Shown piece after piece: positions 5,458 through 35,811 of a stretch of 64,000 nucleotides of DNA. Positions within the stretch are counted from its first letter, which is position 1. Each line of letters begins with the position of its first letter. The DNA lies in assembly GCF_056746865.1 (NCBI RefSeq), contig NZ_CM163382.1; one strand, written 5' to 3'. The translations under genes and the position numbers were made by a program. The notes under the pieces were generated by a model. That model was given only the letters and a program-made list of their open reading frames with translations. It searched no databases and was not told where the DNA came from.

Positions 5458-5580
5458 TGACGATTTGCGAGCGATCCAGAAGATCTACAAAAGATTTTCA
5501 CGAAAAGCGGTGAAAAACTCATGTTTTCATCCTGTCTGTGGCATCCTTTACCCATAATCTGATAAACAGGCACGGACATT

Positions 5581-8514: not shown

Positions 8515-8623
8515 GTAGGGTACAGAGGTAAGATGTTCTATCTTTCAGACCTTTTACTTCACGTAATCGGATTTGGCTGAATATTTTAGCCGCCCCAGTC
8601 AGTAATGACTGGGGCGTTTTTTA
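8515..8623 (+). ncRNA. spf: Spot 42 small RNA
   Basis: Sequence GTAGGGTACAGAGGTAAGATGTTCTATC...GCCGCCCCAGTCAGTAATGACTGGGGCGTTTTTTA matches Spot 42, ends in an intrinsic terminator; immediately downstream of polA. Confidence 0.85.
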
Positions 8624-8648
8624 TTGGGCGAAAGAAAAGCTCTGTAAT

Positions 8649-8729
8649 GCCTGATGCGCCCTGTTTATCAGGCCAACGGTAGAAGTGTAATCTATTGAAT
8701 TTACGGGCCGGATACGCCACATCCGGCAC
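8649..8729. repeat. REP/BIME-type palindromic elements
   Basis: GCCTGATGCG...ATCAGGCC and GCCGGATACGCCACATCCGGC palindromic units. Confidence 0.6.
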
Positions 8730-8748
8730 AAGCATTAAGGCAAGAAAA

Positions 8749-9381: not shown

Positions 9382-9651
9382 AGCGGTCGTCTCCGTCAGT
9401 CAAAGCTTTGCGGCGATTATACCTGAACCATAATAAAAGGCGGATTTTTCGGCGTGAGCGTTGTAAGTAAAAGCCATACGCTTTGTGAGACATTGCCGAT
9501 AGTCTTTATGCGAAATAGCAGAGAAAATTCTGCGATGCATGTCAAATAAGCTATATAAATCAGTTAATTGCTTTTATATAAAACTCTGAAAATGTGCAAA
9601 TACTGATGGCGGTTGATTGTTTGTTTAAAGCAAAGGCGTAAAGTAGCACCC

Positions 9652-9897
9652 ATAGAGCGAGGACGCTAACAGGAACAATGACTCAGGATGAGGGTCAGGA
9701 GCGCCAGGAGGCGAAGACAGAGGATTGTCAGGAAGACAAACGTCCGGAGACGTAATTAAACGGAAATGGAATCAACACGGATTGTTCCGGCTAATGGAAA
9801 AACAGGGTGTGTTGGCGGCCTGCAAGGATTGTAAGACCCGTTAAGGGTTATGAGTCAGGAAAAAAGGCGACAGAGTAATCTGTCGCCTTTTTTCTTT
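9652..9897 (+). ncRNA. csrC: CsrC, CsrA-sequestering small RNA
   Basis: About 245 nt with many GGA motifs in AGGA/CAGGA contexts, ending in hairpin AAGGCGACAGAGTAATCTGTCGCCTTTTTT; between engB and yihI. Ends are approximate. Confidence 0.75.
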
Positions 9898-9962
9898 GCT
9901 TGCTTTCTGTTAGATTCCGCCGCAAATCTATACTGAATAAAACGGCTAAAAGACGAACCATT

Positions 9963-10472
9963 ATGAAACCATCATCTTCAAACTCACGCAGCAAAGGTCA
10001 TGCAAAAGCGCGTCGAAAAACACGCGAGGAGCTGGATCAGGAAGCTCGTGACCGTAAGCGTCAGAAAAAACGTCGTGGTCATGCGCCGGGCAGCCGCGCA
10101 GCGGGCGGTAACACCACGTCAGGCAGCAAAGGCCAGAACGCACCGAAAGATCCACGTATTGGCAGTAAAACCCCTATTCCATTGGGCGTGACTGAAAAAG
10201 TCACCAAACAGCACAAACCGAAGAGTGAGAAACCTATGCTTTCACCGCAGGCGGAGTTGGAATTACTGGAAACGGATGAGCGTCTGGATGCGCTGCTGGA
10301 ACGTCTGGAAGCAGGCGAAACCCTGAGTGCCGAAGAGCAATCCTGGGTGGATGCCAAACTGGATCGTATTGATGAGTTGATGCAGAAACTCGGCCTCTCT
10401 TATGACGATGACGAAGAAGAGGAAGAAGACGAGAAGCAAGAAGACATGATGCGTCTGCTGCGGGGCAACTAA
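9963..10472 (+). CDS. yihI: Der GTPase-activating protein YihI
   Basis: 169 aa from ATG at 9963 ([12 protein letters not shown]...), basic N-terminus and acidic C-terminus; the track ORF start at 9900 would overlap the csrC terminator. Confidence 0.85.
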
Positions 10473-10660
10473 CGGATTGCCGCCGTGGGCCTTCCCGTTC
10501 TGCTGATAACCCTTCCGGTTATATGTTATCTGGTGTGGTTATTCGTTAAACTACAGCGGTTGTCGCGGCGACAAAAGTGGCTGCGCAACCGGCTGATGAC
10601 CCGAAACGGGCATCCGCCGGTACGCCGTAGCCGCCAGAGACGCCATCGGAAGGAGTGAGC

Positions 10661-12034
10661 ATGTCTGTACAGCAAATCGACTGGGATCTGGCCCTGATCC
10701 AGAAATATAACTATTCCGGGCCACGATACACCTCGTACCCGACCGCGCTGGAGTTTTCAGAAGACTTCGGCGAACAGGCGTTTTTACAAGCCGTGGCGCG
10801 CTATCCTGAGCGTCCATTATCTCTCTACGTACATATTCCGTTCTGCCATAAGCTTTGTTACTTCTGCGGTTGCAATAAGATTGTTACTCGCCAGCAGCAC
10901 AAGGCCGATCAGTATCTGGACGCGCTGGAGCAAGAAATCGTCCATCGTGCACCGCTGTTCGCCGGGCGTCACGTCAGCCAATTGCACTGGGGCGGTGGTA
11001 CGCCGACGTATCTGAACAAAGCGCAAATCAGCCGTCTGATGAAGCTGCTGCGCGAAAACTTCCAGTTCAATGCCGATGCGGAGATTTCGATCGAAGTCGA
11101 TCCGCGTGAAATCGAACTGGATGTACTCGATCATTTACGCGCCGAGGGCTTTAATCGCCTGAGCATGGGCGTGCAGGACTTCAACAAAGAAGTGCAACGT
11201 CTGGTTAACCGCGAGCAGGATGAAGAGTTCATCTTTGCACTGCTTAACCATGCGCGTGAGATTGGTTTTACCTCCACCAACATCGACCTGATTTACGGCC
11301 TGCCGAAACAGACGCCGGAGAGTTTCGCCTTTACCCTGAAACGCGTGGCGGAGCTGAACCCCGATCGTCTGAGTGTCTTCAACTACGCGCATCTGCCGAC
11401 CATTTTTGCTGCTCAGCGCAAAATCAAAGATGCTGACTTGCCGAGTCCGCAGCAAAAACTCGATATCCTGCAGGAAACCATCGCCTTCCTGACGCAATCG
11501 GGCTATCAGTTTATCGGTATGGATCACTTTGCTCGCCCGGATGACGAGCTGGCGGTGGCCCAGCGTGAAGGCGTGCTGCATCGTAACTTCCAGGGCTACA
11601 CCACTCAGGGCGATACCGATCTGCTGGGGATGGGCGTTTCCGCCATCAGCATGATTGGCGACTGCTACGCGCAGAACCAGAAAGAGTTGAAGCAGTACTA
11701 TCAGCAAGTGGATGAACAAGGCAATGCGCTGTGGCGTGGTATTGCGCTAACGCGTGATGACTGTATTCGCCGCGATGTGATTAAGTCGCTCATCTGCAAC
11801 TTCCGTCTGGATTTCGCCCCCATTGAGCAACAGTGGGATTTGCACTTCCCTGATTACTTTGCCGAAGATCTCAAGCTGCTCGCCCCGTTAGCAAAAGATG
11901 GGCTGGTGGATGTGGATGAGAAGGGGATTCAGGTGACGGCGAAAGGTCGCCTGCTTATCCGCAACATTTGCATGTGCTTTGATACCTATCTGCGCCAGAA
12001 AGCGCGGATGCAGCAGTTCTCTCGGGTGATTTAA
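10661..12034 (+). CDS. hemN: Oxygen-independent coproporphyrinogen III oxidase (radical SAM)
   Basis: 457 aa from ATG at 10661 with GGAG RBS; CHKLCYFCGC radical-SAM cysteine motif. Confidence 0.92.
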   Translation: MSVQQIDWDLALIQKYNYSGPRYTSYPTALEFSEDFGEQAFLQAVARYPERPLSLYVHIPFCHKLCYFCGCNKIVTRQQHKADQYLDALEQEIVHRAPLFAGRHVSQLHWGGGTPTYLNKAQISRLMKLLRENFQFNADAEISIEVDPREIELDVLDHLRAEGFNRLSMGVQDFNKEVQRLVNREQDEEFIFALLNHAREIGFTSTNIDLIYGLPKQTPESFAFTLKRVAELNPDRLSVFNYAHLPTIFAAQRKIKDADLPSPQQKLDILQETIAFLTQSGYQFIGMDHFARPDDELAVAQREGVLHRNFQGYTTQGDTDLLGMGVSAISMIGDCYAQNQKELKQYYQQVDEQGNALWRGIALTRDDCIRRDVIKSLICNFRLDFAPIEQQWDLHFPDYFAEDLKLLAPLAKDGLVDVDEKGIQVTAKGRLLIRNICMCFDTYLRQKARMQQFSRVI

Positions 12035-13866: not shown

Positions 13867-14916
13867 TTATTTCCTGATAGGCAGGTAAACCGAGAACTCG
13901 GTATGACCTGGCCAACTGGTAAATTCAATTTTGCCTGAATGCTGATCAATCAAATTACGGGCGATGGATAAGCCAAGCCCGGTGCCACCTTCGCGGCCGC
14001 TGACCATCGGGTAAAACAGCGTATCCTGCAAATGAGGCGGAATACCTGGCCCGTTATCTTCCACATCAATTCGCGCCGCCAGCCGATAACGCTCGCCGTG
14101 TAAGGTCAGTTGGAAAGCTGTGCGGGTACGCAGAATGATTTCACCACCCTCTGGCCCCAGCGCCTGTAGCGCATTGCGCACAATATTCAGGAGCACTTGC
14201 TCAATTTGATCCGGGTCGTGCGCCAGTTCCGGCAGGCTGGGGTCGTAATCACGAATCAACCGCACGTTGTCCGGCAGTTCCATCGACACCAGCGTCACCA
14301 CGCGTTCAGCCACTTTATGAATACTTTCGGTAACGCGCGTACCGGGCAGTTGCGGTCCCAACAGACGGTCGACCAGATTTCGCAGCCGGTCCGCCTGTTC
14401 GATAATAACTTTGGTATATTCGAGTAGTGACGGGTCAGGTAATGCTTTGCTGAGCAGCTGCGCCGCGCCACGTAAACCGCCAAGCGGATTTTTAATCTCA
14501 TGTGCCAGGCCGCGCACTAAATCACGGGCAGCAACCTGCTGGGCGTGCTGTAGCTGTTCCTGACTTAAGCGGCGCTGGTTATCCATCGGTGCCATCTCCA
14601 GCAGGATCATGCCGTCCGGCATACGCTGGGCCGTCACAGAAAGGATATGCGAGCGCCCGTCGATGACCAGCGTCACTTCGTTATCGGTAAAACCTTGCCC
14701 CGCCTCCAGACTTTCTTGCATCAGCTCGATATTTAATGAGAAGTAGCTCAACAGTTCCGGTAACGGTGTACCAAACAATTTGCGGGAGCTTTGGGCGAGC
14801 AGTTGTTGCGCGGCGGGGTTGGCGTAATGGATCGCCAGGTTGTCATCGATTAACAAAATACTGTTAATCAGCGAGTTGAGGATCTGCCCAGCATCGGGCT
14901 GCGTGCCTGTTGCCAT
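13867..14916 (-). CDS. glnL: Nitrogen sensor histidine kinase NR(II), NtrB
   Basis: 349 aa, H-box HEIKNPL, ATPase domain. Confidence 0.92.
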
Positions 14917-18911: not shown

Positions 18912-19622
18912 ATGGCGGAGAATCAATCCACCGTAGAAAATGCAAAAGAGAAACTGGATCGGTGGTTGAAAGATGGCATCACCACGCCGGGTGGAAAACT
19001 CCCTTCAGAAAGAGAGCTGGGAGAACTGCTGGGCATTAAACGTATGACGCTGCGCCAGGCGTTGTTGAACCTCGAGGCAGAATCCAAAATCTTCCGTAAG
19101 GATCGTAAGGGGTGGTTCGTGACCCAGCCGCGATTTAATTACAGTCCGGAGCTGTCAGCGAGCTTTCAGCGGGCCGCAATTGAGCAAGGACGAGAGCCTT
19201 CCTGGGGGTTTACCGAGAAAAACCGTACCAGCGATATTCCCGAGACGCTCGCGCCACTGATTGCAGTGACACCATCAACTGAACTCTATCGCATCACCGG
19301 CTGGGGGGCGCTGGAAGGACATAAAGTTTTCTATCACGAAACATATATTAATCCTGAAGTTGCTCCGGGTTTTATTGAACAACTTGAAAACCACTCATTT
19401 TCTGCAGTCTGGGAAAAGTGCTACCAAAAAGAGACGGTAGTAAAAAAATTGATTTTCAAACCCGTCAGAATGCCGGGCGATATCAGCAAGTATCTTGGCG
19501 GTTCTGTGGGTATGCCAGCGATCTTAATTGAAAAGCATCGCGCCGACCAGCAAGGCAATATTGTCCAGATAGATATTGAATATTGGCGATTTGAGGCCGT
19601 AGACCTCATCATTAATCTGTAG
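18912..19622 (+). CDS. yihL: GntR-family transcriptional regulator YihL
   Basis: 236 aa, N-terminal winged HTH, UTRA-like C-terminal domain. Confidence 0.85.
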   Translation: MAENQSTVENAKEKLDRWLKDGITTPGGKLPSERELGELLGIKRMTLRQALLNLEAESKIFRKDRKGWFVTQPRFNYSPELSASFQRAAIEQGREPSWGFTEKNRTSDIPETLAPLIAVTPSTELYRITGWGALEGHKVFYHETYINPEVAPGFIEQLENHSFSAVWEKCYQKETVVKKLIFKPVRMPGDISKYLGGSVGMPAILIEKHRADQQGNIVQIDIEYWRFEAVDLIINL

Positions 19623-19629
19623 GTGTTTT

Positions 19630-21871
<2,242 letters not shown>

Positions 21872-21972
21872 TAAGTTTTAACTCATACGCAGTTAATAAA
21901 ACCATTCGATATGAATGGTCGGTATCTTATTGCCTTTAAAACAGTGATTTTAAAAATCGCTTAGGGGATGTT

Positions 21973-23238
21973 ATGCTCACGAAAAAGAAATGGGCGTTAT
22001 TTAGTCTATTAACATTGTGTGGCGGTACAATTTATAAATTACCGTCGCTGAAAGATGCGTTTTATATCCCGATGCAGGAATATTTCCATTTGACCAATGG
22101 TCAAATTGGTAATGCTATGTCGGTAAACTCATTTGTCACGACAGTGGGCTTTTTTCTGTCTATTTATTTTGCCGATAAACTACCGCGCAGATACACCATG
22201 TCATTCTCACTCATTGCGACAGGATTACTGGGTGTTTATTTGACGACAATGCCGGGATATTGGGGCATCCTCTTTGTCTGGGCGCTATTTGGCGTTACTT
22301 GCGACATGATGAACTGGCCGGTCTTGCTCAAGTCGGTAAGTCGATTGGGCAATAGCGAACAACAAGGTCGGTTGTTTGGCTTCTTCGAAACAGGGCGTGG
22401 CATTGTCGATACCGTGGTGGCATTTTCTGCGTTGGCAGTATTTACCTGGTTTGGCAGTGGCTTATTGGGTTTTAAAGCAGGCATCTGGTTCTATTCCCTT
22501 ATTGTGATTGCCGTAGGCATTATCATTTTCTTTGTTCTGAATGACAAAGAAGAGGCACCGTCCGTTGAGGTGAAAAAAGAAGACGGAGCATCGAAAAACA
22601 CCAGTATGACCTCGGTGCTGAAAGACAAAACTATCTGGCTTATCGCTTTCAACGTCTTCTTCGTTTACGCGGTTTACTGTGGCCTGACATTCTTCATTCC
22701 ATTCCTGAAAAACATCTATCTATTGCCCGTTGCGCTGGTGGGGGCTTACGGCATCATTAACCAATACTGTCTGAAAATGATTGGTGGACCGATTGGTGGC
22801 ATGATTTCAGATAAGATCCTGAAATCGCCGAGTAAATATCTATGCTACACCTTTATCATCAGTACCGCTGCGCTCGTACTGTTGATTATGCTGCCGCACG
22901 AAAGTATGCCGGTATATTTAGGGATGGCATGTACGCTGGGCTTTGGCGCGATAGTCTTTACACAGCGAGCCGTATTTTTTGCACCTATCGGCGAAGCAAA
23001 AATTGCTGAAAATAAAACAGGCGCGGCGATGGCGTTGGGTAGCTTTATTGGTTACGCCCCGGCGATGTTCTGCTTCAGTCTGTATGGCTACATTCTGGAT
23101 TTAAATCCGGGGATTATTGGCTACAAAATTGTGTTTGGCATTATGGCCTGCTTCGCATTCTGTGGTGCGGTGGTTTCCGTAATGCTGGTTAAGCGTATTA
23201 GCCAACGTAAGAAAGAGATGCTGGCGGCTGAAGCTTGA
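21973..23238 (+). CDS. yihN: MFS transporter YihN
   Basis: 421 aa, 12-TM hydrophobic profile. Confidence 0.88.
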   Translation: MLTKKKWALFSLLTLCGGTIYKLPSLKDAFYIPMQEYFHLTNGQIGNAMSVNSFVTTVGFFLSIYFADKLPRRYTMSFSLIATGLLGVYLTTMPGYWGILFVWALFGVTCDMMNWPVLLKSVSRLGNSEQQGRLFGFFETGRGIVDTVVAFSALAVFTWFGSGLLGFKAGIWFYSLIVIAVGIIIFFVLNDKEEAPSVEVKKEDGASKNTSMTSVLKDKTIWLIAFNVFFVYAVYCGLTFFIPFLKNIYLLPVALVGAYGIINQYCLKMIGGPIGGMISDKILKSPSKYLCYTFIISTAALVLLIMLPHESMPVYLGMACTLGFGAIVFTQRAVFFAPIGEAKIAENKTGAAMALGSFIGYAPAMFCFSLYGYILDLNPGIIGYKIVFGIMACFAFCGAVVSVMLVKRISQRKKEMLAAEA

Positions 23239-23242
23239 TTAA

Positions 23243-23325
23243 TGGCCGGATGTGGCTTAATCCGGCCAACGGAAACCGTATCAACCGTAGGCCGGATAAG
23301 GCGTTTTCGCCGCATCCGGCAGTTT
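23243..23325. repeat. REP/BIME palindromic elements
   Basis: GGCCGGATGTGGC...GCCGGATAAGGCGTTTTCGCCGCATCCGGCAG units. Confidence 0.6.
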
Positions 23326-23329
23326 TACA

Positions 23330-24022
23330 TCAGAAGAAATACTTCGTCCCGATACGAATCTGGTTTTGCTCGCGGTGGTACGGTTCGACATTACGATCTA
23401 ACCAGCGTAATTCGAAATAAGGGAGCCAGTGTTCATTAATGCGATAACGGAAGGTGTTAGTGATTTCCCAGTGATGATCTTTTCCATTGCTGCTATTAAA
23501 GTCATTTACTCGCATGAAGTAATGTGGTTCAAATGTATAGGAGAATTTCTCGGTGATTTTAAAATTCCAGTAGGTGCCAACTTCATAGGTGTCGTTATTA
23601 TCCAATTCGCCGTTCAAATCTGTAGAGCTGTAATTATTATGGTTATAGCGATTACGCACCGTCAGGTTAAACCACGGAGTAAATTTGTAGTTAACATCCA
23701 GATAAACGGCACCACCCGAACCGATACTCTTGTCATTAATTAAGCCACCGGGCTGGATGGTTAATTTATCGGTTGGTTTAAATAAAGGATACCAACCTTC
23801 AATTTCATTATAGCCATGTTTGAGTTCATCTTCTCGCTGAAAGGTGTAGGTATTGGTTAACATAATACCCGCGCCCATATCGAAGTTATAACCCACGCGT
23901 AGCATAACTTCGCCCTGATCGGAGGCGAGATTATATGCCTCCCTGTTTTCGACGTATGCGCCAGCAAATACCGAGGCAGAGGTCAGAGAGGATAATAGAA
24001 TTATTGCATTAATCTTTTTCAT
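23330..24022 (-). CDS. ompL: Outer membrane porin L
   Basis: 230 aa from MKKINAIILL signal peptide, C-terminal GTKYFF beta-barrel signature. Confidence 0.85.
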   Translation of the reverse strand: MKKINAIILLSSLTSASVFAGAYVENREAYNLASDQGEVMLRVGYNFDMGAGIMLTNTYTFQREDELKHGYNEIEGWYPLFKPTDKLTIQPGGLINDKSIGSGGAVYLDVNYKFTPWFNLTVRNRYNHNNYSSTDLNGELDNNDTYEVGTYWNFKITEKFSYTFEPHYFMRVNDFNSSNGKDHHWEITNTFRYRINEHWLPYFELRWLDRNVEPYHREQNQIRIGTKYFF

Positions 24023-24088
24023 AATAAGTCCATTTTTAAACGTAGGGAGGCCGCCACCCACCAGGATGGAAATAGCGGCTATTGACAT

Positions 24089-25492
24089 TTATAACGTTAC
24101 GGAAGCCGTTTTTTCTTCTGTCGCCATCTCTTTATTTTTGCGTTGGTTGATTTCCTCAATAATCAATGCAAACCGTTTTTCATTGAGTGTGTAAAAGAAT
24201 CCCATCGTTAATGCAGCAATAATTGCCAGCGCACAAGGCCAGATAAAAATGAGCTGACGCAAACCCTGTAATGTCGCATCACTTTGCGCGATGTTGGGAA
24301 CATAACCGATTTGCGTCAGCATAATGCCTGGCAAGAAGCCAGCAAGTGCGGCAGAAATTTTACGAAAGAAGGTATAACCGGTATAAACAGAACCTTCGGC
24401 ACGAATACCGGTTTTCCATTCACCGTAATCTACGGTATCTGGTACCAGCGCCCAGTTCAGGCTGTTCACAAAGGCCGTGCCAAAAAAGGCGACACAAGAG
24501 AACATGACAAAAGTGAAAGAGTTACTTCCCCAGAAATAATTCAGGATATCACCAACCGCCCATAGCACCATGCCAGCTAAATAAACCTGTTTTTTACCAA
24601 AACATTTTACAGTTAATGGCACCAGTAATACGCCGACGAGGATACATCCCATACTGAAAAATCCCATCCACGACAATAAATTAATATCATTCAGCACATA
24701 TTGGGTGTAATAGACCTGAATCGCCAGTTTGATATTAAATGCCGCCAGGGTACACAGGTTAGCAATGCACAAAACCAGCAATGGCGGATTACGAAATATC
24801 GCGCAAAAAGATTTGAGAATACTGGCTTTATGTCCGGTTGGCGCTGTGTCCACATAATGCTCTTTGACGCCTCTGTAGCACAGCATCATAAAAATAAAGC
24901 CACCAATGGAGAACATCAGTGCCGCGCAGGCATAACCGACGGTGGAGTCAGAAAAAAGCGACTGCAACGGAATAAACGCCACGGTACAAATCAATAGCCC
25001 TATGGTTGCACCACCCTGGCGGTAAGCCGCGAGCTGCGCGCGCTCATTCGGGTTTTTGGTAATGGCCGGGATCATCGCGCCATACGAGCAGTTCATCAGA
25101 CTGTATGAAAGCCCAAACATCATAAACAGTGCTGTGGCAATCGTCGTTTTAACCGGCAAACTAAAAGTGGTGGCGATAAACTGGAGCGTTGCAATTAACG
25201 CCGCCGGAACCGCTGCGTATAAAATAAACGGCCTGAACTTTCCTTTAGGCCCAATATTTTTCCGCGAATCGAGTAAAAATCCGGTGAGCATATCGGTAAA
25301 CGCGGTAAAAAACTTCGCCACCAGAAAGATAATCCCGCCATAGTAAGCAGGCATCCCTAATTCATCGGTATAAAATTTGAGGAGATACAGAGTGCCGATG
25401 CTAAGCATTAAATTCGAACCGACGTCGCCCATGCCATAGGCGATTTTTTCCCGCAGATTCAGTTTTAATGTCAGTGGATTATGGTCAGACAT
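24089..25492 (-). CDS. yihO: GPH-family sugar:cation symporter YihO (sulfoquinovose importer)
   Basis: ~467 aa, glycoside-pentoside-hexuronide transporter family; paralogous to adjacent yihP. Confidence 0.88.
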   Translation of the reverse strand: MSDHNPLTLKLNLREKIAYGMGDVGSNLMLSIGTLYLLKFYTDELGMPAYYGGIIFLVAKFFTAFTDMLTGFLLDSRKNIGPKGKFRPFILYAAVPAALIATLQFIATTFSLPVKTTIATALFMMFGLSYSLMNCSYGAMIPAITKNPNERAQLAAYRQGGATIGLLICTVAFIPLQSLFSDSTVGYACAALMFSIGGFIFMMLCYRGVKEHYVDTAPTGHKASILKSFCAIFRNPPLLVLCIANLCTLAAFNIKLAIQVYYTQYVLNDINLLSWMGFFSMGCILVGVLLVPLTVKCFGKKQVYLAGMVLWAVGDILNYFWGSNSFTFVMFSCVAFFGTAFVNSLNWALVPDTVDYGEWKTGIRAEGSVYTGYTFFRKISAALAGFLPGIMLTQIGYVPNIAQSDATLQGLRQLIFIWPCALAIIAALTMGFFYTLNEKRFALIIEEINQRKNKEMATEEKTASVTL

Positions 25493-25532
25493 AATCACTC
25501 CTTATAACGCCCCGCAGGGCGTTGTTTATTAT

Positions 25533-26918
25533 TTATTCCGTGCGTTTACGGGCTTCTATTTCTTCAACAATGCGGACGTACATTTTCTCGTTCAGACTGT
25601 AGAAACAACCCATCGCAACAATGGTGACTACCGCCAGTGCGCTTGGGTAGATGAAGATCAGCTGGCGTAAACCTTCGATGGTATGGTCAGCCTGGGCGAC
25701 GTTTGGCACATAGCCGATTTGCGTCAGCATCCAGCCTGGGAAGAAACCAGCCAGCGCCTGAGAAACTTTGCGAAAGAAGGTGAAACCGGTGTAGACCGTC
25801 CCTTCCGAACGCACGCCGGTGCGCCATTCGCCATATTCCACGGTGTCGGAAATCAGCGCCCAGTTCAGGCTGTTAACAAACGCTGAGCCGAAGAATGCCA
25901 GGCAGGAGAACGTCACGAAGCTGACCGAACCGCCGCCAAAGAAATAGTTGAGCAGATCGCCAAGCACCCAAATCAGCAGGCCGCCGATATAGACCTTCTT
26001 CTTACCAAAACGTCTGACTGCGCCAGGCATCAGGAACACGCCGATGAAAATACAGCCCATGCTGAAAAATCCCATATATGACAACAGGATGGGATCGTTA
26101 AGCACGTACTGGGTGTAATAAACCTGAATGGCGAGCTTGACGTTAAACGCCCCTAAGGTGCAGAGGTTAGCAATACACAGAATGAACAGCGGGCGGTTAC
26201 CGGCAATTGCGCGGAAAGATTGCAACAGGCCAGGCTTTTGCGCCGGATTGGTAGGTTGGGTTTCGACATAACGCTCTTTCACGCCCGAGTAGCAGATCCA
26301 CATAAACAGCAGGCCGAACAGTGAAAACAGCGTGGCAGCGAAGATATAGCCAATTTGCTGATTACCTTCGATAAGATTCATAACCGGCACGAATCCCACC
26401 GTACACAGCAGCAGGCCCAGCGTAGCGCCGCCCTGACGCCATGCCGCCAGTGAGGCGCGCTCGTTGGGATTTTTGGTGATGGCAGGCACCATTGCGCCGT
26501 AGGAACAGTTCATCATGCTGAAAAACAGTCCATAAAGCATAAACAGGATAGTGGCCATCACCGTTTTACCGGTGACATCGAACGGCGTACCGATAAAGTT
26601 GGCGATCGCCAGTAAGGTAACCGGGAATGACGCATACAGAATAAAAGGACGGAACTTACCTTTTGGACCGATCTTGCGTCGGGAATCCAACATGATGCCG
26701 GTTCCCATATCGGTAAAGGCGGTAAAGAATTTCGAGATCAAAAAGATAATGCCGCCATAGGTACCAGGTAGCCCCAGAACGTCGGTATAAAACTTCAAAA
26801 GATAAAGCGTACCAATATCCAGCAGGATGTTAGAGGCCAGGTCGCCAATACCGTAAGAGAGTTTCTCTTTAAAGGGCAGGCGTAAAGTTGCTGGATCTTC
26901 CGTTGTGATGTGACTCAT
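25533..26918 (-). CDS. yihP: GPH-family symporter YihP
   Basis: 461 aa from MSHITTEDP with GGGAG RBS; paralogue of yihO. Confidence 0.88.
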   Translation of the reverse strand: MSHITTEDPATLRLPFKEKLSYGIGDLASNILLDIGTLYLLKFYTDVLGLPGTYGGIIFLISKFFTAFTDMGTGIMLDSRRKIGPKGKFRPFILYASFPVTLLAIANFIGTPFDVTGKTVMATILFMLYGLFFSMMNCSYGAMVPAITKNPNERASLAAWRQGGATLGLLLCTVGFVPVMNLIEGNQQIGYIFAATLFSLFGLLFMWICYSGVKERYVETQPTNPAQKPGLLQSFRAIAGNRPLFILCIANLCTLGAFNVKLAIQVYYTQYVLNDPILLSYMGFFSMGCIFIGVFLMPGAVRRFGKKKVYIGGLLIWVLGDLLNYFFGGGSVSFVTFSCLAFFGSAFVNSLNWALISDTVEYGEWRTGVRSEGTVYTGFTFFRKVSQALAGFFPGWMLTQIGYVPNVAQADHTIEGLRQLIFIYPSALAVVTIVAMGCFYSLNEKMYVRIVEEIEARKRTE

Positions 26919-26963
26919 CGATGTTCTCCCTTTGCCCATGAGTTTCCCCACGGGCGAATGTGA

Positions 26964-29000
26964 TTAGATGCTTTTTAACGACGCGAACAGTGCCGCCCAT
27001 TCGCTATCGGCGCGATAAAAGACCGGCGGCTTGCCGATGGGCGCATTAACGGTCACTTCCCCGCCCCGGAACGCTTCACCCGTCCAGGCGTGCACCCAGT
27101 TATCCTCCGGCAGATAGAGCGTCCAGTCGCTACGGCCTTCTTCATGCACCGGAGCGACCAGAATGTCGCGACCTAACAGGTACTGATATTTCAGGGTGTA
27201 AGTGTGCGCATCGTCTTCGTAATGCAGGAACAGCGGGCGCATGACCGGCAGACCGGACTTCGCATTCAGCGCGACGGCCTCTTTCAGGTAAGGTTTCAGG
27301 GTGGTGAAGACGGTGGTCATACGGGCAAAATGGGCGATAGTTTCCGCGTCGCCGTCAAACTGCCAGTTGTCGCCCGGACGGTTGCCTTCGTGGGTGCGCA
27401 TCATCGGCGTGAAGGCGCTGAAATCACACCAGCGCAGTAGCAGCTCTTTGCTGCGCTTCATCTCAAACAGGGTGGTGTAACCGCCAATGTCGCTGTGATG
27501 CAGGCCATGTCCGGTCATTGCCAGCGACAGCGCCGCCGGGACAACCGACGCCAGGCCATCGTCCAGACTCCAGTCGACGTTCTGGTCACCCGCCCACATC
27601 ATGGTGGAGTATTTCTGGCTACCGGTAGAACCGGCGCGCATAAAGAAAAGGATCTCGCCGAGCTTGCCCGTTTCTTCAAGGGCTTCGTAGTTACATTTCG
27701 CCCACAGCGCTGGCCAGGCGTTATGCATAATCTCCGCGCTGACGCCGTTATGCAGGTACGTGTCGGTGGGCAGATACTCGCCGAAGTCAGCCATCCAGCC
27801 GCCGCAGCCAAGTTCAATCATGTTCTTTTTGATCACTTCCTTGAACCAGGCGTAGGCTTCTGGATTGGTGAGGTCGACAACGCCGCCATAGAACTCGCCA
27901 AACTCCACCAGATAGTCGCCGCCAGAGGCATCTTTTGCCAGATAACCGCGCTTTGCCGCCTCTTCGCAGAGATCTTTATCGCTGGCGACATACGGGTTGA
28001 TATAGGCCAGGAACTGCACGCCCTCTTTGTTCCACTGCTTAATACGTGAGTCCAGTTGCGGATAGTTTTCGCTGTTCCACTTCCAGTTCCACATTACGCG
28101 TTTGCCAAAAGAGGTCATACGGATCCCGGACCAGTCCTGCGCCCAGATGCCGTTAACCTTCACACCCGCGTTACGCATGGTGTCCAGTTTCTTCTGACAC
28201 ACTTCCGTCCCGCCCTGAATGCCGAGCGTTACCCCGTCATAAATCCAGTCGGGCAGTTCTGGCTGGCGTCCCAGCAGGGCAGTTAATTTTTCCAGCAGGG
28301 AGATGTATGTATCAGCACATTCAAAACGCAGCGTTGCTTTGTCTTCCCACAGCGCCAGTTCATGGTATTCCGGGGCGCTAAAGTCGAAGTTCATGTAGCA
28401 ACTGTTATCAACATGGCAGTAATACTTCTGCGTGCTGACAAACGTAGGCTGTGGGAAGAAAGTCCAGTAATAGTCGCCGCCCGCGTTCTCTTTGCAGTCG
28501 GCCTGCCAGGTGACATAGGTTTGCTTGTTGCGACCAACGCCTTGTTCACTGGTCCATAGCGGGAACGGTTTGCCGCGCAGATCGAAGTAGGAAAACTGTT
28601 CGCCGCAGCCGTAGATATGGTCCTCTGGTTGAGCGGCAAGGCGCAGCCAGATGCGGTTGTGGTTAAGGTTGTCGTTTTGTAGTTCCAGCAATAAACGGCC
28701 CTGATCGTCGGCAGAGATATTCAGCGTGGCGCTAATGTCAGAACCACGGCTGAAATGGATTAACCAACCATCCGGTGACTGGCTGACGGTAGCGTCGGTG
28801 AGCGCAATCTTCTCCTGCAATTTATCTTTAATGCTGAAATTACCGCGGAACATATCGATATCCGCTATACCTGAGCCAATCCATAAACAAGGATTATCTT
28901 TACTATGGGTTAAAATAAGACGGCCCTGAAAACGTAGGGTAAGACTGTCGTTATTCTGATGAAATTGAAAATCTAATAACTGTGGGCGTGGCGTATCCAT
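26964..29000 (-). CDS. yihQ: Sulfoquinovosidase (GH31 family)
   Basis: 678 aa, GH31 alpha-glucosidase-like catalytic region (WAQDWSG..., GDQNVDWS). Confidence 0.92.
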   Translation of the reverse strand: MDTPRPQLLDFQFHQNNDSLTLRFQGRLILTHSKDNPCLWIGSGIADIDMFRGNFSIKDKLQEKIALTDATVSQSPDGWLIHFSRGSDISATLNISADDQGRLLLELQNDNLNHNRIWLRLAAQPEDHIYGCGEQFSYFDLRGKPFPLWTSEQGVGRNKQTYVTWQADCKENAGGDYYWTFFPQPTFVSTQKYYCHVDNSCYMNFDFSAPEYHELALWEDKATLRFECADTYISLLEKLTALLGRQPELPDWIYDGVTLGIQGGTEVCQKKLDTMRNAGVKVNGIWAQDWSGIRMTSFGKRVMWNWKWNSENYPQLDSRIKQWNKEGVQFLAYINPYVASDKDLCEEAAKRGYLAKDASGGDYLVEFGEFYGGVVDLTNPEAYAWFKEVIKKNMIELGCGGWMADFGEYLPTDTYLHNGVSAEIMHNAWPALWAKCNYEALEETGKLGEILFFMRAGSTGSQKYSTMMWAGDQNVDWSLDDGLASVVPAALSLAMTGHGLHHSDIGGYTTLFEMKRSKELLLRWCDFSAFTPMMRTHEGNRPGDNWQFDGDAETIAHFARMTTVFTTLKPYLKEAVALNAKSGLPVMRPLFLHYEDDAHTYTLKYQYLLGRDILVAPVHEEGRSDWTLYLPEDNWVHAWTGEAFRGGEVTVNAPIGKPPVFYRADSEWAALFASLKSI

Positions 29001-29204
29001 AAATAATCTCCATAGAGTTGAGAACGAGGTTGTTTCCTTCCTGTTATTGTTATTACAGGCTTATGTAAAATGATTCTCATAAAACTGATATATATAAACT
29101 TTAAAGAAGCTGAGCTGTTTTTAACTTAATAAATTGATGATACATAACGTTGCCTTTAGCGAGTGAAATGTTCTTCAATGATTTTGACTGCTAATCAATA
29201 CAAG

Positions 29205-30116
29205 TTATTTTCTCTGTCCGTAAATATTAAAAAACAGGCGGTGTGTTTTTCCGGGTTGCAGTAATATTAAATCGGTGCCGGAATTAAACGCATCAGGCGG
29301 GCAACTCATAGGTTCAACTGCCAGTCCCTGACGCTGTAATTTTTCACCGCTATAAACCTGCACCCAGGGTTGATCGCAACAGAGGCTCACCGAAAGCAAA
29401 TGCTGTGGATGGGTAATGGTCATTTCCCACAGGTCATTAGCGGTTTTAAAGGTATGGTCTATTTTTGTCGCGGCTATTTTTGTCGCCCGCGTGAAATTTA
29501 AATTCAGCTCATCAACGTGGTGAAGCGTTGTCGGATTTGCGTGCTCATCGACGGCATAAACCTGTTCTGCCGGAAGCTGGAAAAGATAGTCATCAACAGA
29601 TGTTAAGTTGCAGGTTAAATAAGGATGAATACCCACACCATAAGGTGCGGTCACAGTACCAATATTCTGGCTTGCGATCTCAACGGAAAGGCCCGTGCGA
29701 GCGTTGAGCGAATAAACAACCTGCGAAGCCAGCATAAACGGATAGCCGTAACTGGGCGGCAGAAAAGCTGTCAGGGTAACGCTGGTGGCGGTTAATTCGC
29801 TAATTTGCCAGTCACGCCAGGCAAGCAGCCCGTGAATAGCGGCTTTTGAACTATGTTCATTAATGGGTAACTGATAGTCCTGCCCCTGATAGCGGTAACA
29901 GCCGTTGGCGATCCGGTTCGGCCACGGAATAAGCACTTTACCCAGATGCGCCAGCGGCATCTCTTCGGGTTTGTGCGGGATGACTAAATGACAACCCTGA
30001 AAGGTTAATTCAGCCAGACCAGCACCAACCGTCACGATAGTCGCGTGATAATCCCCCGCGGCAAGTGAAACGGTTTGTCCACTGCAATGCATGTTGGTGA
30101 TTTGCATACGAGGCAC
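29205..30116 (-). CDS. yihR: Aldose 1-epimerase family protein YihR (sulfoquinovose mutarotase)
   Basis: 303 aa ORF, mutarotase-like; start codon uncertain. Confidence 0.85.
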   Translation of the reverse strand: MPRMQITNMHCSGQTVSLAAGDYHATIVTVGAGLAELTFQGCHLVIPHKPEEMPLAHLGKVLIPWPNRIANGCYRYQGQDYQLPINEHSSKAAIHGLLAWRDWQISELTATSVTLTAFLPPSYGYPFMLASQVVYSLNARTGLSVEIASQNIGTVTAPYGVGIHPYLTCNLTSVDDYLFQLPAEQVYAVDEHANPTTLHHVDELNLNFTRATKIAATKIDHTFKTANDLWEMTITHPQHLLSVSLCCDQPWVQVYSGEKLQRQGLAVEPMSCPPDAFNSGTDLILLQPGKTHRLFFNIYGQRK

Positions 30117-30174
30117 CTTTATTGAATAACGACATACCCGGCATGTAGCCTGATATGCCGTTATTTCAGCTCAG

Positions 30175-31416
30175 TTATTTCGCGTTAATGTCCAGCAGGC
30201 CTGCGGCAACAGCCGGTGCCAGACCAGGGGCTAACGGGATACGCGGGATCACCAGGCAATGCAGCAGGTGATAAATATCCTGTTTGCCGTCCCAGACTTT
30301 CGTGGTGACTTTATTGTCCGCATCCAGCTCCTGCCACCAGGAACCATTTTCATAGTCCATCAGGTACTTAATGCAGTAGTCCCACCATGTCTGATACCAG
30401 GTTTCATACTGGCGATCGCCGGTGACGGTGTAGAGCGCGTAAGCCGTACCCATCGCTTCGACGATAGGCCAACGCACACGTTCGCGAACCACCGGTTTGC
30501 CTTCCCAGTCAACGGTATAAACAATCCCGTCCGCGCCATCGGGTGCCCAGGCATCGCGCACGGTGGCGTTAAATAGACCTTTGGCATCTTCTAGCAGCCA
30601 GGCAGGCGGCTGTTCACAACGGGCTTCCAGGGCCGCGTGGATGTGCAGCATTAAACGGCCCCATTCGATCCAGTGGCCCGGCGTGCCACCGAATGCGCGG
30701 AAGCGGTGCGCCGGGTTATCTTTGTTGTAATCCGGCAGCGGATTCCACTGGGTATCGAAGTGCTCGTTAACGCGATAATGATTATTTCTGGCGACGTCGT
30801 GGATAATCACGGAAGCCACGCGAATCGCGCGATCCAGCCATTTTTTGTCGTGCGTTACGTCATAAACAATCAGGAAGGCTTCCACCGCGTGCATGTTGGC
30901 ATTGCCGCCGCGGTACTCTTCGGTTTTGCTGAAGGCTTCGTCCCACGACTCCAGGCACATCTGCTCTTCTTCACTCCAGAAATATTTTTCAATAATTTCA
31001 ATGGTGTAATCGAGCAGCTTGCGTGCTTCCGGGTGACCGGTAGTGACGGCACTGGCGGCACCCAGCAGAGCAAAGAAGTGTTGATAGCCTTGTTTGGAGG
31101 CATCCACCACGCCCTCGTCATTCACGCAGGCATACCAGCCGCCATATTTTTTATCGCGCAGTGCGCCATTCATGGCTTTGATACCGTGATCAACCAACGA
31201 GTAAGCGCCAGGGCGGCCCATCGCCGCAGCAACGGAATAAACGTGCAGCATACGGGCGGTGATCCACAGATGCGTGCCCATCTCTTCTTTGATTTGCCCT
31301 TTATTGCCCAGCCAGCCAAAGCCAGTCGGCACTACGGCATTCTTACCAAAATCAAAGATGCGATCGGTTTCCTGTTCCAGCCAGCGGTTGTGACTTAAGG
31401 TGTTAAACCATTTCAT
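30175..31416 (-). CDS. yihS: Sulfoquinovose isomerase
   Basis: 413 aa, N-acyl-glucosamine 2-epimerase-like fold. Confidence 0.92.
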
Positions 31417-31431
31417 TTTTGTATCCCCATC

Positions 31432-32310
31432 TTAACGGCGTTTAGCCATCATTTCGTCGACGATATCGCCAAGTTGTTGTAATTTCGGTGCGCAAACGTC
31501 ACGCAGCATCAGCTCGTTGTCTGGTAAACCGACAACCGATGCCCAGACGGCACGACCAGCCAGGAAGCCCGATGCACCCGCTGTCATTGCCACGCGTACG
31601 GCACGCGGGAACAGTTTTTCGTCGACACCGGAAGAAAGTATCACCCACGGCATATTGATATGGTCATTCAGACGTTGTGAAGCACTGAGAAGCTCTTGTT
31701 GCGGACCTTTACCGTAAAGCGGCATTTCAACTTTGTAGAGGTCAGCGCCACTGTCGCCCAGCTCTTTGGCAGCATCGATGATCGCTTGTTCGCGATCGAA
31801 TTTATCGCCACGACGTGGTGGGCGGACGACTGGCTCAATAATGCTTACCAGGCCGTGTGAGTGGCACAGTTCGTTAAACTCTTTCACCATATCCAGACGT
31901 TGCTGCGCATCTTCATCACTACGCCACAGCACCAGCAGTTTTAAGGCTTTGCCACCGTCTTGTTTGATTTGTAGCGGATTGATTTTGCGGTCAATGACCA
32001 CGCTATCTACCGGAATACCGTTGCCAGGAATGAACTCATCGGCGGCGACAATCATGGCGCAACTTTTGGCAATCGCGTTTTGCTCAACCACCTGGCGGTA
32101 ACAGAATTGTTGATCTACCAGAATCGCCGAGGCATAAGGCGAGAGGGTCTTCGCCGCGTTAACTTTGAAATCAGTTAAAACGCTATCGGCTACCGGAGCG
32201 GGTGCGCCAGCCGCAGCAAACATCATGCGCATGGCTTCGCGCTGATCGACCGCCAGCATGGCAAAACCGCCCGATGCGCGCGTAATGTCGTTGATGGTGT
32301 ACTTATTCAT
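31432..32310 (-). CDS. yihT: 6-deoxy-6-sulfofructose-1-phosphate aldolase
   Basis: 292 aa, class I aldolase (DeoC/LacD-like). Confidence 0.92.
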
Positions 32311-32333
32311 TCATTTATTCCTTTATCCAGTCG

Positions 32334-33230
32334 TTACATTTTTACTTTGGCAGTCATCCCGGCACTGACACGGACCTGTTCCAGAATGGCGGACCAGTCC
32401 TGGCGACCGCGACCCGCTGCGCGCGCCTGGCTATAAACCTCCCGTGAGGCGGCCCCCAGCGGCATTGGCACATGCAGCTGGTTGGCGACATCAAGGGCGA
32501 TACCAAGATCCTTATGGGCAAGATCGATCATGAAGGCGGGAGAAAGATCCCCGCTGAGGACTTTGTTTGGCCAGGAAGTGGTGAAGTGGCCTTTACCGGC
32601 GGCGGTGCCGCTCATCACCTTGACGGCAACATCGAAGGGAAGATTCAGGGCTTCGCACAAAACAGCGGCTTCTGCCGAAAGCGCATTGAGCGCGATGCTC
32701 ATGTAGTTGTTGATGAGCTTAACGCGGATCCCCATGCCCGGACCGCCCGCGTTGATCAACTCACTGCCCATCGCCATCAGGATCGGTGTGGCGCGTTCAA
32801 CTTGTTCAGCGGTGCCGCCAGCCAGCAGTAACAGAGTACCGGTAATGGCATTTGCAGAAGTACGGCCTACCGGAACATCCATCATGCTGAAGCCTTTGGC
32901 TTGCATATCGGCAATCAATTTATCGGTTTGCAGCGGGTGGATGGTCGACATATCGATGACCAGCGCATCGGTAGATAAGCTTTCGCAAACGCCGTTTTCA
33001 CCGAACAACACGCTGCGCACCAGATCGCCATTCGGCAACATGGTAATGATAAATTCGGCATCTTTAGCGGCCTGCGCCGGGTTGGCGGCGGGAGTCGCAC
33101 CTTTGTCTACCAGATGCCGCACAGCTTCGGCGTTCACATCAAAGACGCGAAGTTGATGCCCTTGCTGCAATAAATTGCTCGCCATTGGCGAACCCATTTG
33201 TCCTAAACCGATAAACGCGATTGCTGCCAT
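32334..33230 (-). CDS. yihU: 3-sulfolactaldehyde reductase
   Basis: 298 aa, N-terminal Rossmann GLGQMG, 3-hydroxyisobutyrate dehydrogenase-like. Confidence 0.92.
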
Positions 33231-33397
33231 AACCCTCTCCTGAATACAGTGATGTCACTTTTTGTCATTTATGACATGCTTTGCTTGTCTGTTTTTGATC
33301 GTATTTGTAATTTATCGTCAAAAAATTGACAGCCGTCACTTTTTAAACAATTGGTGAAATTAAAATGAACGCATCCCAAAATGCTTAAGGAATGACC

Positions 33398-34294
33398 ATG
33401 ATTCGTGTTGCTTGTGTAGGTATTACCGTGATGGATCGTATTTATTACGTGGAAGGATTACCGACGGAGAGCGGTAAATACGTGGCGAGAAATTATACGG
33501 AAGTTGGTGGCGGGCCAGCGGCGACGGCAGCGGTTGCGGCGGCAAGGCTGGGGGCGCAGGTTGATTTTATTGGTCGCGTAGGTGATGACGACACGGGCAA
33601 CAGCCTGCTGGCAGAGCTGGAATCCTGGGGCGTTAACACCCGTTACACCAAACGGTATAACCAGGCGAAATCTTCGCAATCCGCCATCATGGTGGATGCC
33701 AAAGGCGAGCGGATAATCATTAACTACCCCAGCCCGGATCTGCTGCCTGACGCAGAGTGGTTGGAGGAAATTGATTTCTCTCAGTGGGATGTTGTGCTGG
33801 CAGATGTACGCTGGCACGACGGTGCTAAAAAAGCCTTCACTCTGGCCCGGCAGGCGGGCGTGATGACTGTTCTGGACGGGGACATTACGCCGCAGGATAT
33901 CAGCGAGCTGGTGGCATTAAGCGATCACGCGGCCTTTTCAGAACCGGGTCTGGCGCGCTTAACGGGCGTGAAAGAGATGGCCAGTGCGCTAAAACAGGCA
34001 CAAACGCTCACAAATGGTCATGTCTATGTGACCCAGGGGAGTGCCGGCTGTGACTGGCTGGAAAATGGCGGACGTCAACATCAACCGGCCTTCAAAGTTG
34101 ATGTGGTAGATACCACCGGTGCGGGTGATGTTTTTCACGGCGCATTGGCGGTGGCGCTGGCAACAGATGGGGATTTAGCGGAGTCAGTCCGCTTCGCCAG
34201 CGGTGTAGCGGCGTTGAAATGCACGCGTCCCGGTGGACGAGCCGGGATCCCTGACTGTGATCAAACCCGATCTTTTTTGTCACTTTTTGTATAA
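33398..34294 (+). CDS. yihV: 6-deoxy-6-sulfofructose kinase (PfkB family)
   Basis: 298 aa from MIRVACVG, ribokinase-like, GAGD motif. Confidence 0.9.
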   Translation: MIRVACVGITVMDRIYYVEGLPTESGKYVARNYTEVGGGPAATAAVAAARLGAQVDFIGRVGDDDTGNSLLAELESWGVNTRYTKRYNQAKSSQSAIMVDAKGERIIINYPSPDLLPDAEWLEEIDFSQWDVVLADVRWHDGAKKAFTLARQAGVMTVLDGDITPQDISELVALSDHAAFSEPGLARLTGVKEMASALKQAQTLTNGHVYVTQGSAGCDWLENGGRQHQPAFKVDVVDTTGAGDVFHGALAVALATDGDLAESVRFASGVAALKCTRPGGRAGIPDCDQTRSFLSLFV

Positions 34295-34327
34295 AATGCC
34301 AGGGTGATGGTTTTTCGAGGAATTTTC

Positions 34328-35113
34328 ATGAGCCTTACCGAACTAACCGGTAACCCGCGGCACGACCAACTCCTCATGCTGATCGCCGAGCGTGGGTATA
34401 TGAATATTGATGAGCTGGCAAATCTGCTGGATGTCTCCACGCAGACGGTCCGCCGGGATATTCGTAAATTAAGCGAGCAAGGGCTGATCACGCGCCATCA
34501 CGGTGGCGCGGGTCGGGCCTCCAGCGTCGTTAATACGGCGTTTGAGCAGCGTGAGGTTTCGCAAACTGAAGAGAAAAAAGCGATTGCCGAAGCGGTGGCA
34601 GACTATATTCCTGATGGTTCAACAATATTTATCACCATTGGTACGACCGTTGAACATGTCGCCCGGGCGTTACTTAACCACAATCATTTGCGGATAATCA
34701 CCAACAGCCTGCGTGTGGCGCATATTCTTTACCACAACCCGCGCTTTGAAGTGATGGTGCCCGGCGGTACGTTGCGCTCTCATAATAGCGGGATCATTGG
34801 CCCTTCAGCGGCGTCCTTTGTGGCTGATTTTCGTGCTGATTATCTGGTAACAAGCGTTGGGGCGATTGAGAGCGATGGCGCGTTGATGGAGTTTGATGTA
34901 AACGAAGCTAACGTGGTGAAAACGATGATGGCGCACGCGAGAAATATTCTGCTGGTCGCCGATCACACTAAGTATCATGCTTCGGCGGCGGTTGAAATTG
35001 GTAACGTGGCACAGGTCACTGCGCTCTTTACCGACGAGCTGCCGCCCGCTGCGCTAAAATCACGCTTACAAGACAGCCAAATTGAAATCATCCTTCCCCA
35101 GGAAGACGCGTAG
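34328..35113 (+). CDS. csqR: DeoR-family repressor of the sulfoquinovose cluster (CsqR/YihW)
   Basis: 261 aa from MSLTELTGNPRHD, DeoR HTH plus sugar-binding domain. Confidence 0.88.
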   Translation: MSLTELTGNPRHDQLLMLIAERGYMNIDELANLLDVSTQTVRRDIRKLSEQGLITRHHGGAGRASSVVNTAFEQREVSQTEEKKAIAEAVADYIPDGSTIFITIGTTVEHVARALLNHNHLRIITNSLRVAHILYHNPRFEVMVPGGTLRSHNSGIIGPSAASFVADFRADYLVTSVGAIESDGALMEFDVNEANVVKTMMAHARNILLVADHTKYHASAAVEIGNVAQVTALFTDELPPAALKSRLQDSQIEIILPQEDA

Positions 35114-35211
35114 AATTTTGTGACCGTTGACCTTGCTTCATACCTGACCACATAGCCAAACCTATCCTTTCCCGCTACAGTTAATTTCTTGTGGCGCGAA
35201 AGGAGGCAAAA

Positions 35212-35811
35212 ATGCTCTATATCTTTGATTTAGGTAATGTGATTGTCGATATCGACTTTAACCGTGTGCTGGGTGCCTGGAGCGATTTAACGCGTGTTCC
35301 ACTGGCTACGCTTAAGAAGAGTTTCCACATGGGCGAGGCGTTTCATCAGCATGAGCGTGGGGAAATTAGCGACGAAGCGTTCGCAGAGGCGCTGTGTCAT
35401 GAGATGGCTCTACCGCTAAGCTATGAGCAGTTCTCTCACGGCTGGCAGGCGGTGTTTGTTGCGCTGCGCCCGGAAGTGATCGCCATCATGCATAAACTGC
35501 GTGAGCAGGGGCATCGCGTGGTGGTGCTTTCCAATACCAACCGCCTGCATACCACCTTCTGGCCGGAAGAATACCCGGAAATTCGTGATGCTGCTGACCA
35601 TATCTATCTGTCGCAAGATCTGGGGATGCGCAAACCTGAAGCACGAATTTACCAGCATGTTTTGCAGGCGGAAGGTTTTTCACCCAGCGATACGGTCTTT
35701 TTCGACGATAACGCCGATAATATAGAAGGAGCTAATCAGCTAGGCATTACCAGCATTCTGGTGAAAGATAAAACCACCATCCCGGGCTATTTCGCGAAGG
35801 TGTTATGCTAA
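35212..35811 (+). CDS. yihX: HAD-family alpha-D-glucose-1-phosphate phosphatase YihX
   Basis: 199 aa from [13 protein letters not shown] (HAD motif I DxG). Confidence 0.88.

Follow-up and report, generated by a model that had tools for sequence, protein, structure and literature searches.

Sulfoquinovose (SQ), a sulfo-sugar of plants, is among the most abundant organosulfur compounds of the biosphere, and the yih gene cluster provides the textbook pathway for its use as food by gut Enterobacteria, the 2,3-dihydroxypropane-1-sulfonate (DHPS) formed going to bacteria that produce sulfite and H2S. The DNA considered here, 64,000 nucleotides of contig NZ_CM163382.1 (assembly GCF_056746865.1) referred to as the window, carries such a cluster at positions 23330–35113. 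Ten genes make it up, namely ompL, the eight genes from yihO to yihV, and csqR, the last also known as yihW (Table 1). The boundaries are exact, with the stop codon of ompL, a minus-strand gene, having its last base at position 23330 and csqR ending at position 35113, and all 11,784 bp of the segment are 100% identical by megablast to many complete Escherichia coli chromosomes in which it is annotated ompL-yihOPQRSTUV-csqR. On all features open to testing in the sequence, the locus is almost certainly the SQ cassette of sulfo-Embden–Meyerhof–Parnas type (sulfo-EMP) in its ‘long form’, the name given to the E. coli cassette of K-12 type (PMC12608037, Kaznadzey et al. 2025). As such the locus is already known, and one more intact E. 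coli copy adds nothing new. The additions made here are modest and concern its two tandem permeases, YihO and YihP: a comparison of their residues and the pattern in which YihP and TauE-type permeases occur in related clusters. They make the question of what the two proteins transport more directly testable.

Table 1. Features of the sulfoquinovose cluster and of the interrupted neighbouring gene yihM, in window coordinates
Feature	Position	Strand	Product and evidence
ompL	23330..24022	-	KdgM-family outer-membrane porin, 230 aa, N-terminal signal-like sequence; NF007434 473 bits (cutoff 288); PF06178 302 bits
yihO	24089..25492	-	GPH-family MFS transporter, 467 aa; TIGR00792 gph 529 bits (cutoff 231); named sulfoquinovose importer in the literature
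yihP	25533..26918	-	GPH-family MFS transporter, 461 aa, yihO paralogue; TIGR00792 535 bits; named putative DHPS exporter in the literature
yihQ	26964..29000	-	GH31 sulfoquinovosidase, 678 aa, without signal peptide; NF007746 (YihQ-type alpha-glucosidase equivalog) 1243 bits (cutoff 553); GH31 Pfam domains
yihR–yihQ spacer	29001..29204		204 bp, AT-rich; widest same-strand gap of the cluster
yihR	29205..30107	-	aldose-1-epimerase (sulfoquinovose mutarotase), 300 aa; NF011719 609 bits (cutoff 251), 1–300 of the 300-position profile
yihS	30175..31416	-	sulfoquinovose-sulfofructose isomerase, 413 aa; Pfam GlcNAc_2-epim PF07221
yihT	31432..32310	-	class I sulfofructose-1-phosphate aldolase, 292 aa; Pfam DeoC PF01791 (DeoC/LacD aldolases)
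yihU	32334..33230	-	NADH-dependent sulfolactaldehyde reductase, 298 aa; NF012005 sulfolactaldehyde 3-reductase 603 bits (cutoff 348)
yihU/yihV divergent control region	33231..33397		167 bp
yihV	33398..34294	+	PfkB-family sulfofructose kinase, 298 aa; Pfam PfkB
csqR (yihW)	34328..35113	+	DeoR-family repressor, 261 aa; HTH_DeoR PF08220 and DeoRC PF00455
yihM fragments	19630–19986 and 21245–21871		split by IS3-family ISEc31 at 19995–21208

Each gene was translated and aligned globally with its counterpart in E. coli K-12 MG1655. None of the ten holds an internal stop, the alignments are full length, and the lengths are equal in nine of ten cases, yihR being the exception. The proteins are 94–100% identical to those of K-12, with 225/230 identical residues in OmpL, 463/467 in YihO, 453/461 in YihP, 671/678 in YihQ, 282/300 in YihR, 410/413 in YihS, 290/292 in YihT, 296/298 in both YihU and YihV, and 261/261 in CsqR. 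An earlier note on this DNA had described a sulfoquinovose (sulfoglycolysis) cluster of ten uninterrupted genes, and the description stands in both respects: frameshifts and premature stops, which would contradict it, were looked for by translation and rejected, with all genes translating cleanly and aligning end to end with K-12, and the assignment to sulfoglycolysis agrees with the annotations of the megablast matches, the protein families and the sulfonate-pocket residues. The K-12 cassette (b3875–b3884), reportedly the prototype of the sulfo-EMP pathway as set out by Denger and co-workers in 2014, matches it in all ten genes, in their order and orientation and in the slot between yihN and yihX, but differs by a spacer insert of ∼66 bp, a longer YihR annotation and an intact yihM.

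The first two of these differences have one origin. YihR has 300 residues here against 308 in K-12, its start being the conserved Met of MQITNMHC. The yihS–yihR spacer of K-12 holds a repeat-like segment of ∼66 bp (CCCTCTCCC...GGGGCGAGGGG; K-12 locus record 14403–14515) that is missing at window positions 30108–30174, and YihR is eight residues shorter because the annotated K-12 start sits in this segment. A truncated YihR was thus rejected: the gap stems from an indel in the spacer, which lies upstream of this Met, and the profile NF011719 is matched over all 300 positions. The gene is nevertheless the least conserved of the cluster, with 94% identity to K-12 (18 substitutions over the shared 300 residues) and 53–60% identity between genera, and it is absent from the loci of Enterobacter ludwigii and Rahnella.

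Families were assigned with NCBIfam models, which have curated cutoffs, and Pfam domains. OmpL, YihO, YihP, YihQ, YihR and YihU pass their NCBIfam cutoffs and the remaining proteins fit their Pfam domains. At the level of residues, every published catalytic or sulfonate-pocket position checked is kept where expected. YihQ has the sulfonate-recognition residues R301, W304 and Y508, together with D405 and D472, which we take to be the nucleophile and acid/base residues, roles reportedly described by Speciale and co-workers in 2016. R55, Q362 and Q379 are present in YihS, the triad K27-N109-R138 and D244 in YihV, K193, S226, S227, R253 and A26 in YihT, and R123, N174 and S178 in YihU. Apart from D405 and D472, the residue lists are those of Sharma et al. 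for the specificity of these enzymes towards sulfonated over phosphorylated sugars (PMC8006165). YihQ has no signal peptide and is therefore cytoplasmic, so that glycosides of SQ must be imported before they can be cleaved, as also argued in that study (PMC8006165).

The route assembled from these parts combines enzyme activities and regulation taken from the literature with gene identity, intactness, residues and duplication age drawn from the present analysis. SQ and its glycosides pass the outer membrane, presumably via the KdgM-type porin OmpL, and a GPH-family permease, probably proton-coupled, carries them into the cytoplasm. There YihQ cleaves the glycosides and YihR interconverts the anomers, after which YihS turns SQ into sulfofructose, YihV phosphorylates it and YihT splits the product into dihydroxyacetone phosphate and sulfolactaldehyde. 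YihU reduces the latter to DHPS, to be excreted, and CsqR keeps the divergent yihU and yihV promoters repressed until released by SQ or sulforhamnose. Growth on SQ with stoichiometric excretion of DHPS and SQ-induced transcription have been shown for K-12 (PMC6278857, PMC12608037).

Two permeases of one family stand side by side in this scheme. YihO and YihP share 65% of their amino acids (81% positives) over 458 residues, and both match the profile TIGR00792 over its whole length (1–437 of 437 positions) as well as PF13347 (266 and 263 bits, respectively). Their genes are 66% identical in DNA, with third codon positions 42% identical and hence near saturation, and only 47% of the residues that are identical between the two proteins are written with the same codon. 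For a wider view, the genomic neighbourhoods of YihO homologues were taken from ten other Enterobacterales, giving 11 hand-picked loci with that of E. coli. The order csqR, yihV / yihU ... yihQ, yihP, yihO, (ompL) recurs in Salmonella, E. ludwigii, Cronobacter, Budvicia, Rahnella, Pantoea stewartii, Yersinia and Serratia fonticola. A neighbour-joining tree of 20 sequences (11 YihO and 9 YihP) rooted on MelB separates a YihO clade, in every case the downstream gene, from a YihP clade, in every case the upstream one, and 95 of 100 bootstrap replicates recover both as monophyletic. Both clades span Escherichia, Salmonella, Enterobacter, Cronobacter, Budvicia, Rahnella, Pantoea, Yersinia and Serratia, and the duplication is therefore older than the split of Enterobacteriaceae, Erwiniaceae, Yersiniaceae and Budviciaceae.

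That the pair might instead have arisen by recent duplication or as an artefact of assembly is suggested solely by the adjacency of the two genes and their common family. Against it stand the DNA divergence and codon usage just given, the two-clade tree and the fact that the pair recurs across thousands of complete genomes of E. coli and in eight other genera, so that its probability is practically nil and the idea was rejected. The earlier note had called yihO and yihP clear paralogues of divergent sequence that arose by an ancient duplication and not in assembly; the pairwise comparison it proposed bears this out, with the nuance that the proteins are only moderately divergent. YihP is better conserved than YihO (86–91% versus 72–79% identity to the E. 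coli proteins in Salmonella, Enterobacter, Budvicia, Rahnella, Cronobacter and Pantoea). E. coli YihO also lies on a fairly long branch, with 79% identity to its Salmonella counterpart versus 91% for YihP.

The substrate-binding residues, whose comparison had likewise been proposed, were approached through MelB of Salmonella, the Na+/melibiose symporter that is the structural prototype of the GPH/MFS_2 family (PDB 4M64, 7L17); in a structure look-up for YihO and YihP only MelB entries matched, neither protein having a solved structure of its own. Fold and family are shared (phmmer E 1e-40 over 430 residues), but identity is only ∼27%. The residues of the MelB sugar and cation sites were those listed by Guan and Hariharan in 2021 (PMC8329300), and their equivalents were located with two independent alignments, which coincide throughout the set of sites. 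Among the 26 equivalents, 22 are invariant and identical over all 11 YihO and 9 YihP sequences. Several features of MelB are kept, namely the equivalents of Asp59 and Lys377, Gly117, Thr373 and several loop motifs. The sugar site, by contrast with MelB, is rebuilt in the same way in both clades, by Asp19 to Asn, Asp124 to Asn, Lys18 to Ser, Arg149 to Gln, Trp128 to Gly and Trp342 to Asn replacements. Asp19 and Asp124 are the two acidic residues by which MelB holds the hydroxyls of galactose. In addition, Val376 is replaced by Arg in both clades, directly beside the conserved Lys377. In the cation site of all 20 sequences, Asp55 and Asn58 have become Thr and Thr121 has become Ser, with Asp59 retained.

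YihO and YihP are, on these residues, members of the GPH family but not Na+/galactoside symporters of the MelB type, the residues that define sugar and Na+ binding being missing; the MelB equivalog model NF007749 likewise scores them at 220 and 214 bits, below its cutoff of 456. We infer that a pocket deprived of two negative charges and endowed with one positive charge is what would be expected for an anionic sulfonate substrate, and the Thr residues at the Asp55 and Asn58 positions suggest coupling to H+ rather than Na+. The differences between the two clades are small and consist mainly of a Tyr in YihO where YihP has Phe. The Tyr120 equivalent is Tyr in all YihO (Y130 in E. coli) and Phe in all YihP (F133), and the Gln372 equivalent is Tyr in 10 of 11 YihO (Y373) and Phe in all YihP (F379). 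Two further sites, equivalent to Trp116 (Phe in YihO, mostly Tyr in YihP) and Thr338 (Thr versus mostly Ser), complete the list. Just 16 columns tell the clades apart along the full length of the proteins, and several of these flank the pocket helices (MelB positions 21, 120, 122, 362–367, 380 and 386).

The distribution of the two permeases among the 11 loci adds a second line of evidence. A protein of the YihO clade is present in every one of them. YihP is absent only from two Klebsiella loci, in which a TauE/SafE-family permease (PF01925, 118 bits) lies between yihQ and yihO instead, at 8954–9907 of the K. quasipneumoniae locus record (L008) and at 4841–5713 of the second record (L013). For other sulfoglycolysis clusters, permeases of the TauE type have been proposed as the exporters of organosulfonates (bioRxiv 10.1101/2021.11.24.469816). 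The yihQ gene of the K. quasipneumoniae locus is intact (81% identity, 98% coverage) and its product cytoplasmic, and with a YihO-type permease alone YihO must suffice for glycoside uptake in this organism. The second Klebsiella locus holds a 47-residue C-terminal remnant of YihP and a decayed yihQ.

The literature gives YihO as the importer of SQ and YihP as ‘most likely’ the exporter of DHPS (PMC6278857, PMC8006165, PMC12890257). A ΔyihO mutant does not grow on SQ (PMC6278857, citing Denger 2014), hence YihP is no substitute SQ importer. The present comparison favours these roles, in which YihO would import SQ as well as its glycosides, with YihP most likely exporting DHPS through nearly the same sulfonate-adapted pocket. 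DHPS being the C4–C6 sulfonate end of SQ, a near-identical pocket in importer and exporter is no contradiction. The Tyr-to-Phe changes (Y130 and Y373 of YihO, F133 and F379 of YihP) would strip hydrogen bonds to the other half of the sugar, which the smaller DHPS would not need. On balance, export of DHPS is the role we consider somewhat better than evenly probable for YihP. A more encompassing proposal, to be held tentatively and given rather less than an even chance, is that YihO and YihP form an anciently split pair using one sulfonate pocket in opposite directions, with a TauE-type permease taking over export in lineages such as Klebsiella.

A competing possibility is that both permeases import, one free SQ and the other glycosides such as sulfoquinovosyl glycerol and lyso-sulfolipid, with DHPS leaving by another way. 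Both proteins are full GPH symporters above the family cutoff with the coupling Asp and Lys kept, the small Tyr/Phe swaps could tune the accommodation of an aglycone, glycoside import is required by a cytoplasmic YihQ (PMC8006165), and the exporter role of YihP is worded as no firmer than ‘most likely’ (PMC6278857). This arrangement is nonetheless unlikely, if well short of negligible, as K. quasipneumoniae combines an intact yihQ with a YihO-type permease only and thus requires no dedicated YihP glycoside importer, as the only loci that lack YihP are those in which a putative sulfonate exporter of the TauE type stands in its place, and as the E. coli cluster encodes no alternative exporter of DHPS. 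Far less probable still is that YihP is a redundant or decaying back-up of YihO with no role of its own. The pocket identical at 22 of 26 sites would fit such a back-up, as would the fact that, in the literature consulted, SQ-growth defects are given for ΔyihO, ΔyihS, ΔyihV, ΔyihT and ΔyihU and none for ΔyihP (PMC6278857). However, deletion of yihO alone abolishes growth on SQ (PMC6278857), YihP is the better conserved of the two between genera, it is intact here and induced on SQ in K-12 (PMC12608037), and both members of the pair have been kept from before the divergence of the Enterobacterales families. The probability left over by the exporter and glycoside-importer readings goes to other or mixed roles of YihP. 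The earlier note had asked whether the two permeases have distinct substrates, SQ versus its glycosides; the evidence leans towards import versus export of DHPS and away from that particular division.

Several considerations weigh against assigning DHPS export to YihP. The literature makes the assignment by elimination, and YihP keeps both the coupling residues of a symporter (equivalents of D59 and K377) and an importer-like pocket, which a second importer would fit equally well. The mapping of the permeases on MelB relies on ∼27% identity, and the co-occurrence pattern comes from 11 hand-picked loci, which are not a statistical sample. TauE is no strict replacement of YihP either, for Cronobacter and Pantoea have it together with both YihP and YihO, the TauE/SafE genes lying between yihQ and the GPH genes (locus records L010 3641–4513 and L005 7626–8537). 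Lastly, the cluster of this particular strain is known from its sequence, the expression and induction data being those of K-12. Were the shared-pocket reading of YihO as importer and YihP as exporter true, it would provide a residue-level and directly testable account of how a symporter scaffold becomes a product exporter, and a shared sulfonate pocket would be of moderate interest to specialists of transport and sulfur cycling.

The place of this cassette in the E. coli population was assessed among 5,426 complete genomes. The long cluster is found in 4,038 of them (∼74%), with at least 80% of its length covered in 3,880. The whole cluster is matched at only 90–95% DNA identity in 242 genomes, and another group of YihO sequences under the name E. 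coli shares just 88–89% identity with that of the window; taken together, these figures indicate that a divergent allele of the long cassette circulates within the species. A more sensitive search with the yihT–csqR segment retrieved a further 1,327 genomes (∼24%) having a cassette ∼67% identical in DNA. This is the alternative cassette that has been described in E. coli Nissle 1917 and many B2 and pathogenic strains as a truncated ‘yihTUVW short form’ (PMC12608037).

The example inspected, from E. coli strain E5 (NZ_CP104521, locus record 2112–10670), comprises eight genes and is not a mere truncation. It occupies the same slot between yihN and yihX as the cassette of the window, and contains homologues of YihT, YihU, YihV and CsqR with all their sulfonate-pocket residues. 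However, these four shared genes are only 67–72% identical in protein and ∼67% in DNA, the whole set is inverted between the same flanks, and ompL, yihO, yihP, yihQ and yihS are missing. A Zn-dependent alcohol dehydrogenase, two MFS transporters of the Sugar_tr type and a distant epimerase are added. These additions point to another front end of a sulfosugar pathway, possibly by way of a sulfo-alditol. Of the two forms, it is the long one that the window has, and ‘complete’ is an apt word for its cluster.

Outside E. coli, hybrid sulfo-EMP1/2 clusters with a class II aldolase of the SqiA type have been described in Yersinia and Serratia (PMC12890257). The clusters of Yersinia and S. fonticola resemble that of the window by csqR, yihV, yihU, yihQ, yihP, yihO and ompL, kept in order. 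They differ from it in one segment (locus records L003 2908–6310 and L007 3030–6355, respectively), in which a Fucose_iso_C-like isomerase of 447 residues, a class II F_bP_aldolase (PF01116) and a longer epimerase, none of them orthologous to the E. coli proteins, replace YihS, YihT and YihR. The window, with its class I YihT and its YihS, has the sulfo-EMP1 set.

CsqR, with its N-terminal HTH_DeoR domain and C-terminal DeoRC sensor domain, is identical to the K-12 protein, including Met25, the reported alternative start that gives the shorter of two forms of the protein (PMC10991401). CsqR binds the yihU/yihV spacer in K-12 (PMC12608037). In the window this control region differs from that of K-12 by 2 bases, and blocks of it, with repeated TGTCA/TGACA/GTCAC motifs among them, are shared with Salmonella and Budvicia as conserved sequence. 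The yihR–yihQ spacer, near-identical to K-12 save a 6-bp indel upstream of yihQ, is a possible candidate for an internal promoter region. A consensus promoter scan of the cluster did not rise above background, with 12 promoter-like sites against 14.3 expected, and a terminator scan gave 19 terminator-like sites against 14.3 expected, both results being uninformative. An Rfam scan of window positions 19000–36000 gave no match in the cluster. Its sole match is the small RNA isrC (150 bits), on the minus strand at 21054–21176 inside the insertion sequence (IS) of yihM.

Beyond the cluster, the gap between fabY and yiiE (window ∼38513–40327; 23184–24998 of an identical reference record) contains, according to that record, a pseudogene, truncated and hypothetical, and after it a gene for a transposase; in K-12 no gene is annotated there. 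On the other side, the neighbouring yihM, given in the earlier note as disrupted by an IS, is indeed split by ISEc31. The exact left junction of yihM and ISEc31 is common to 139 of the 5,426 complete E. coli genomes and is therefore a lineage marker.

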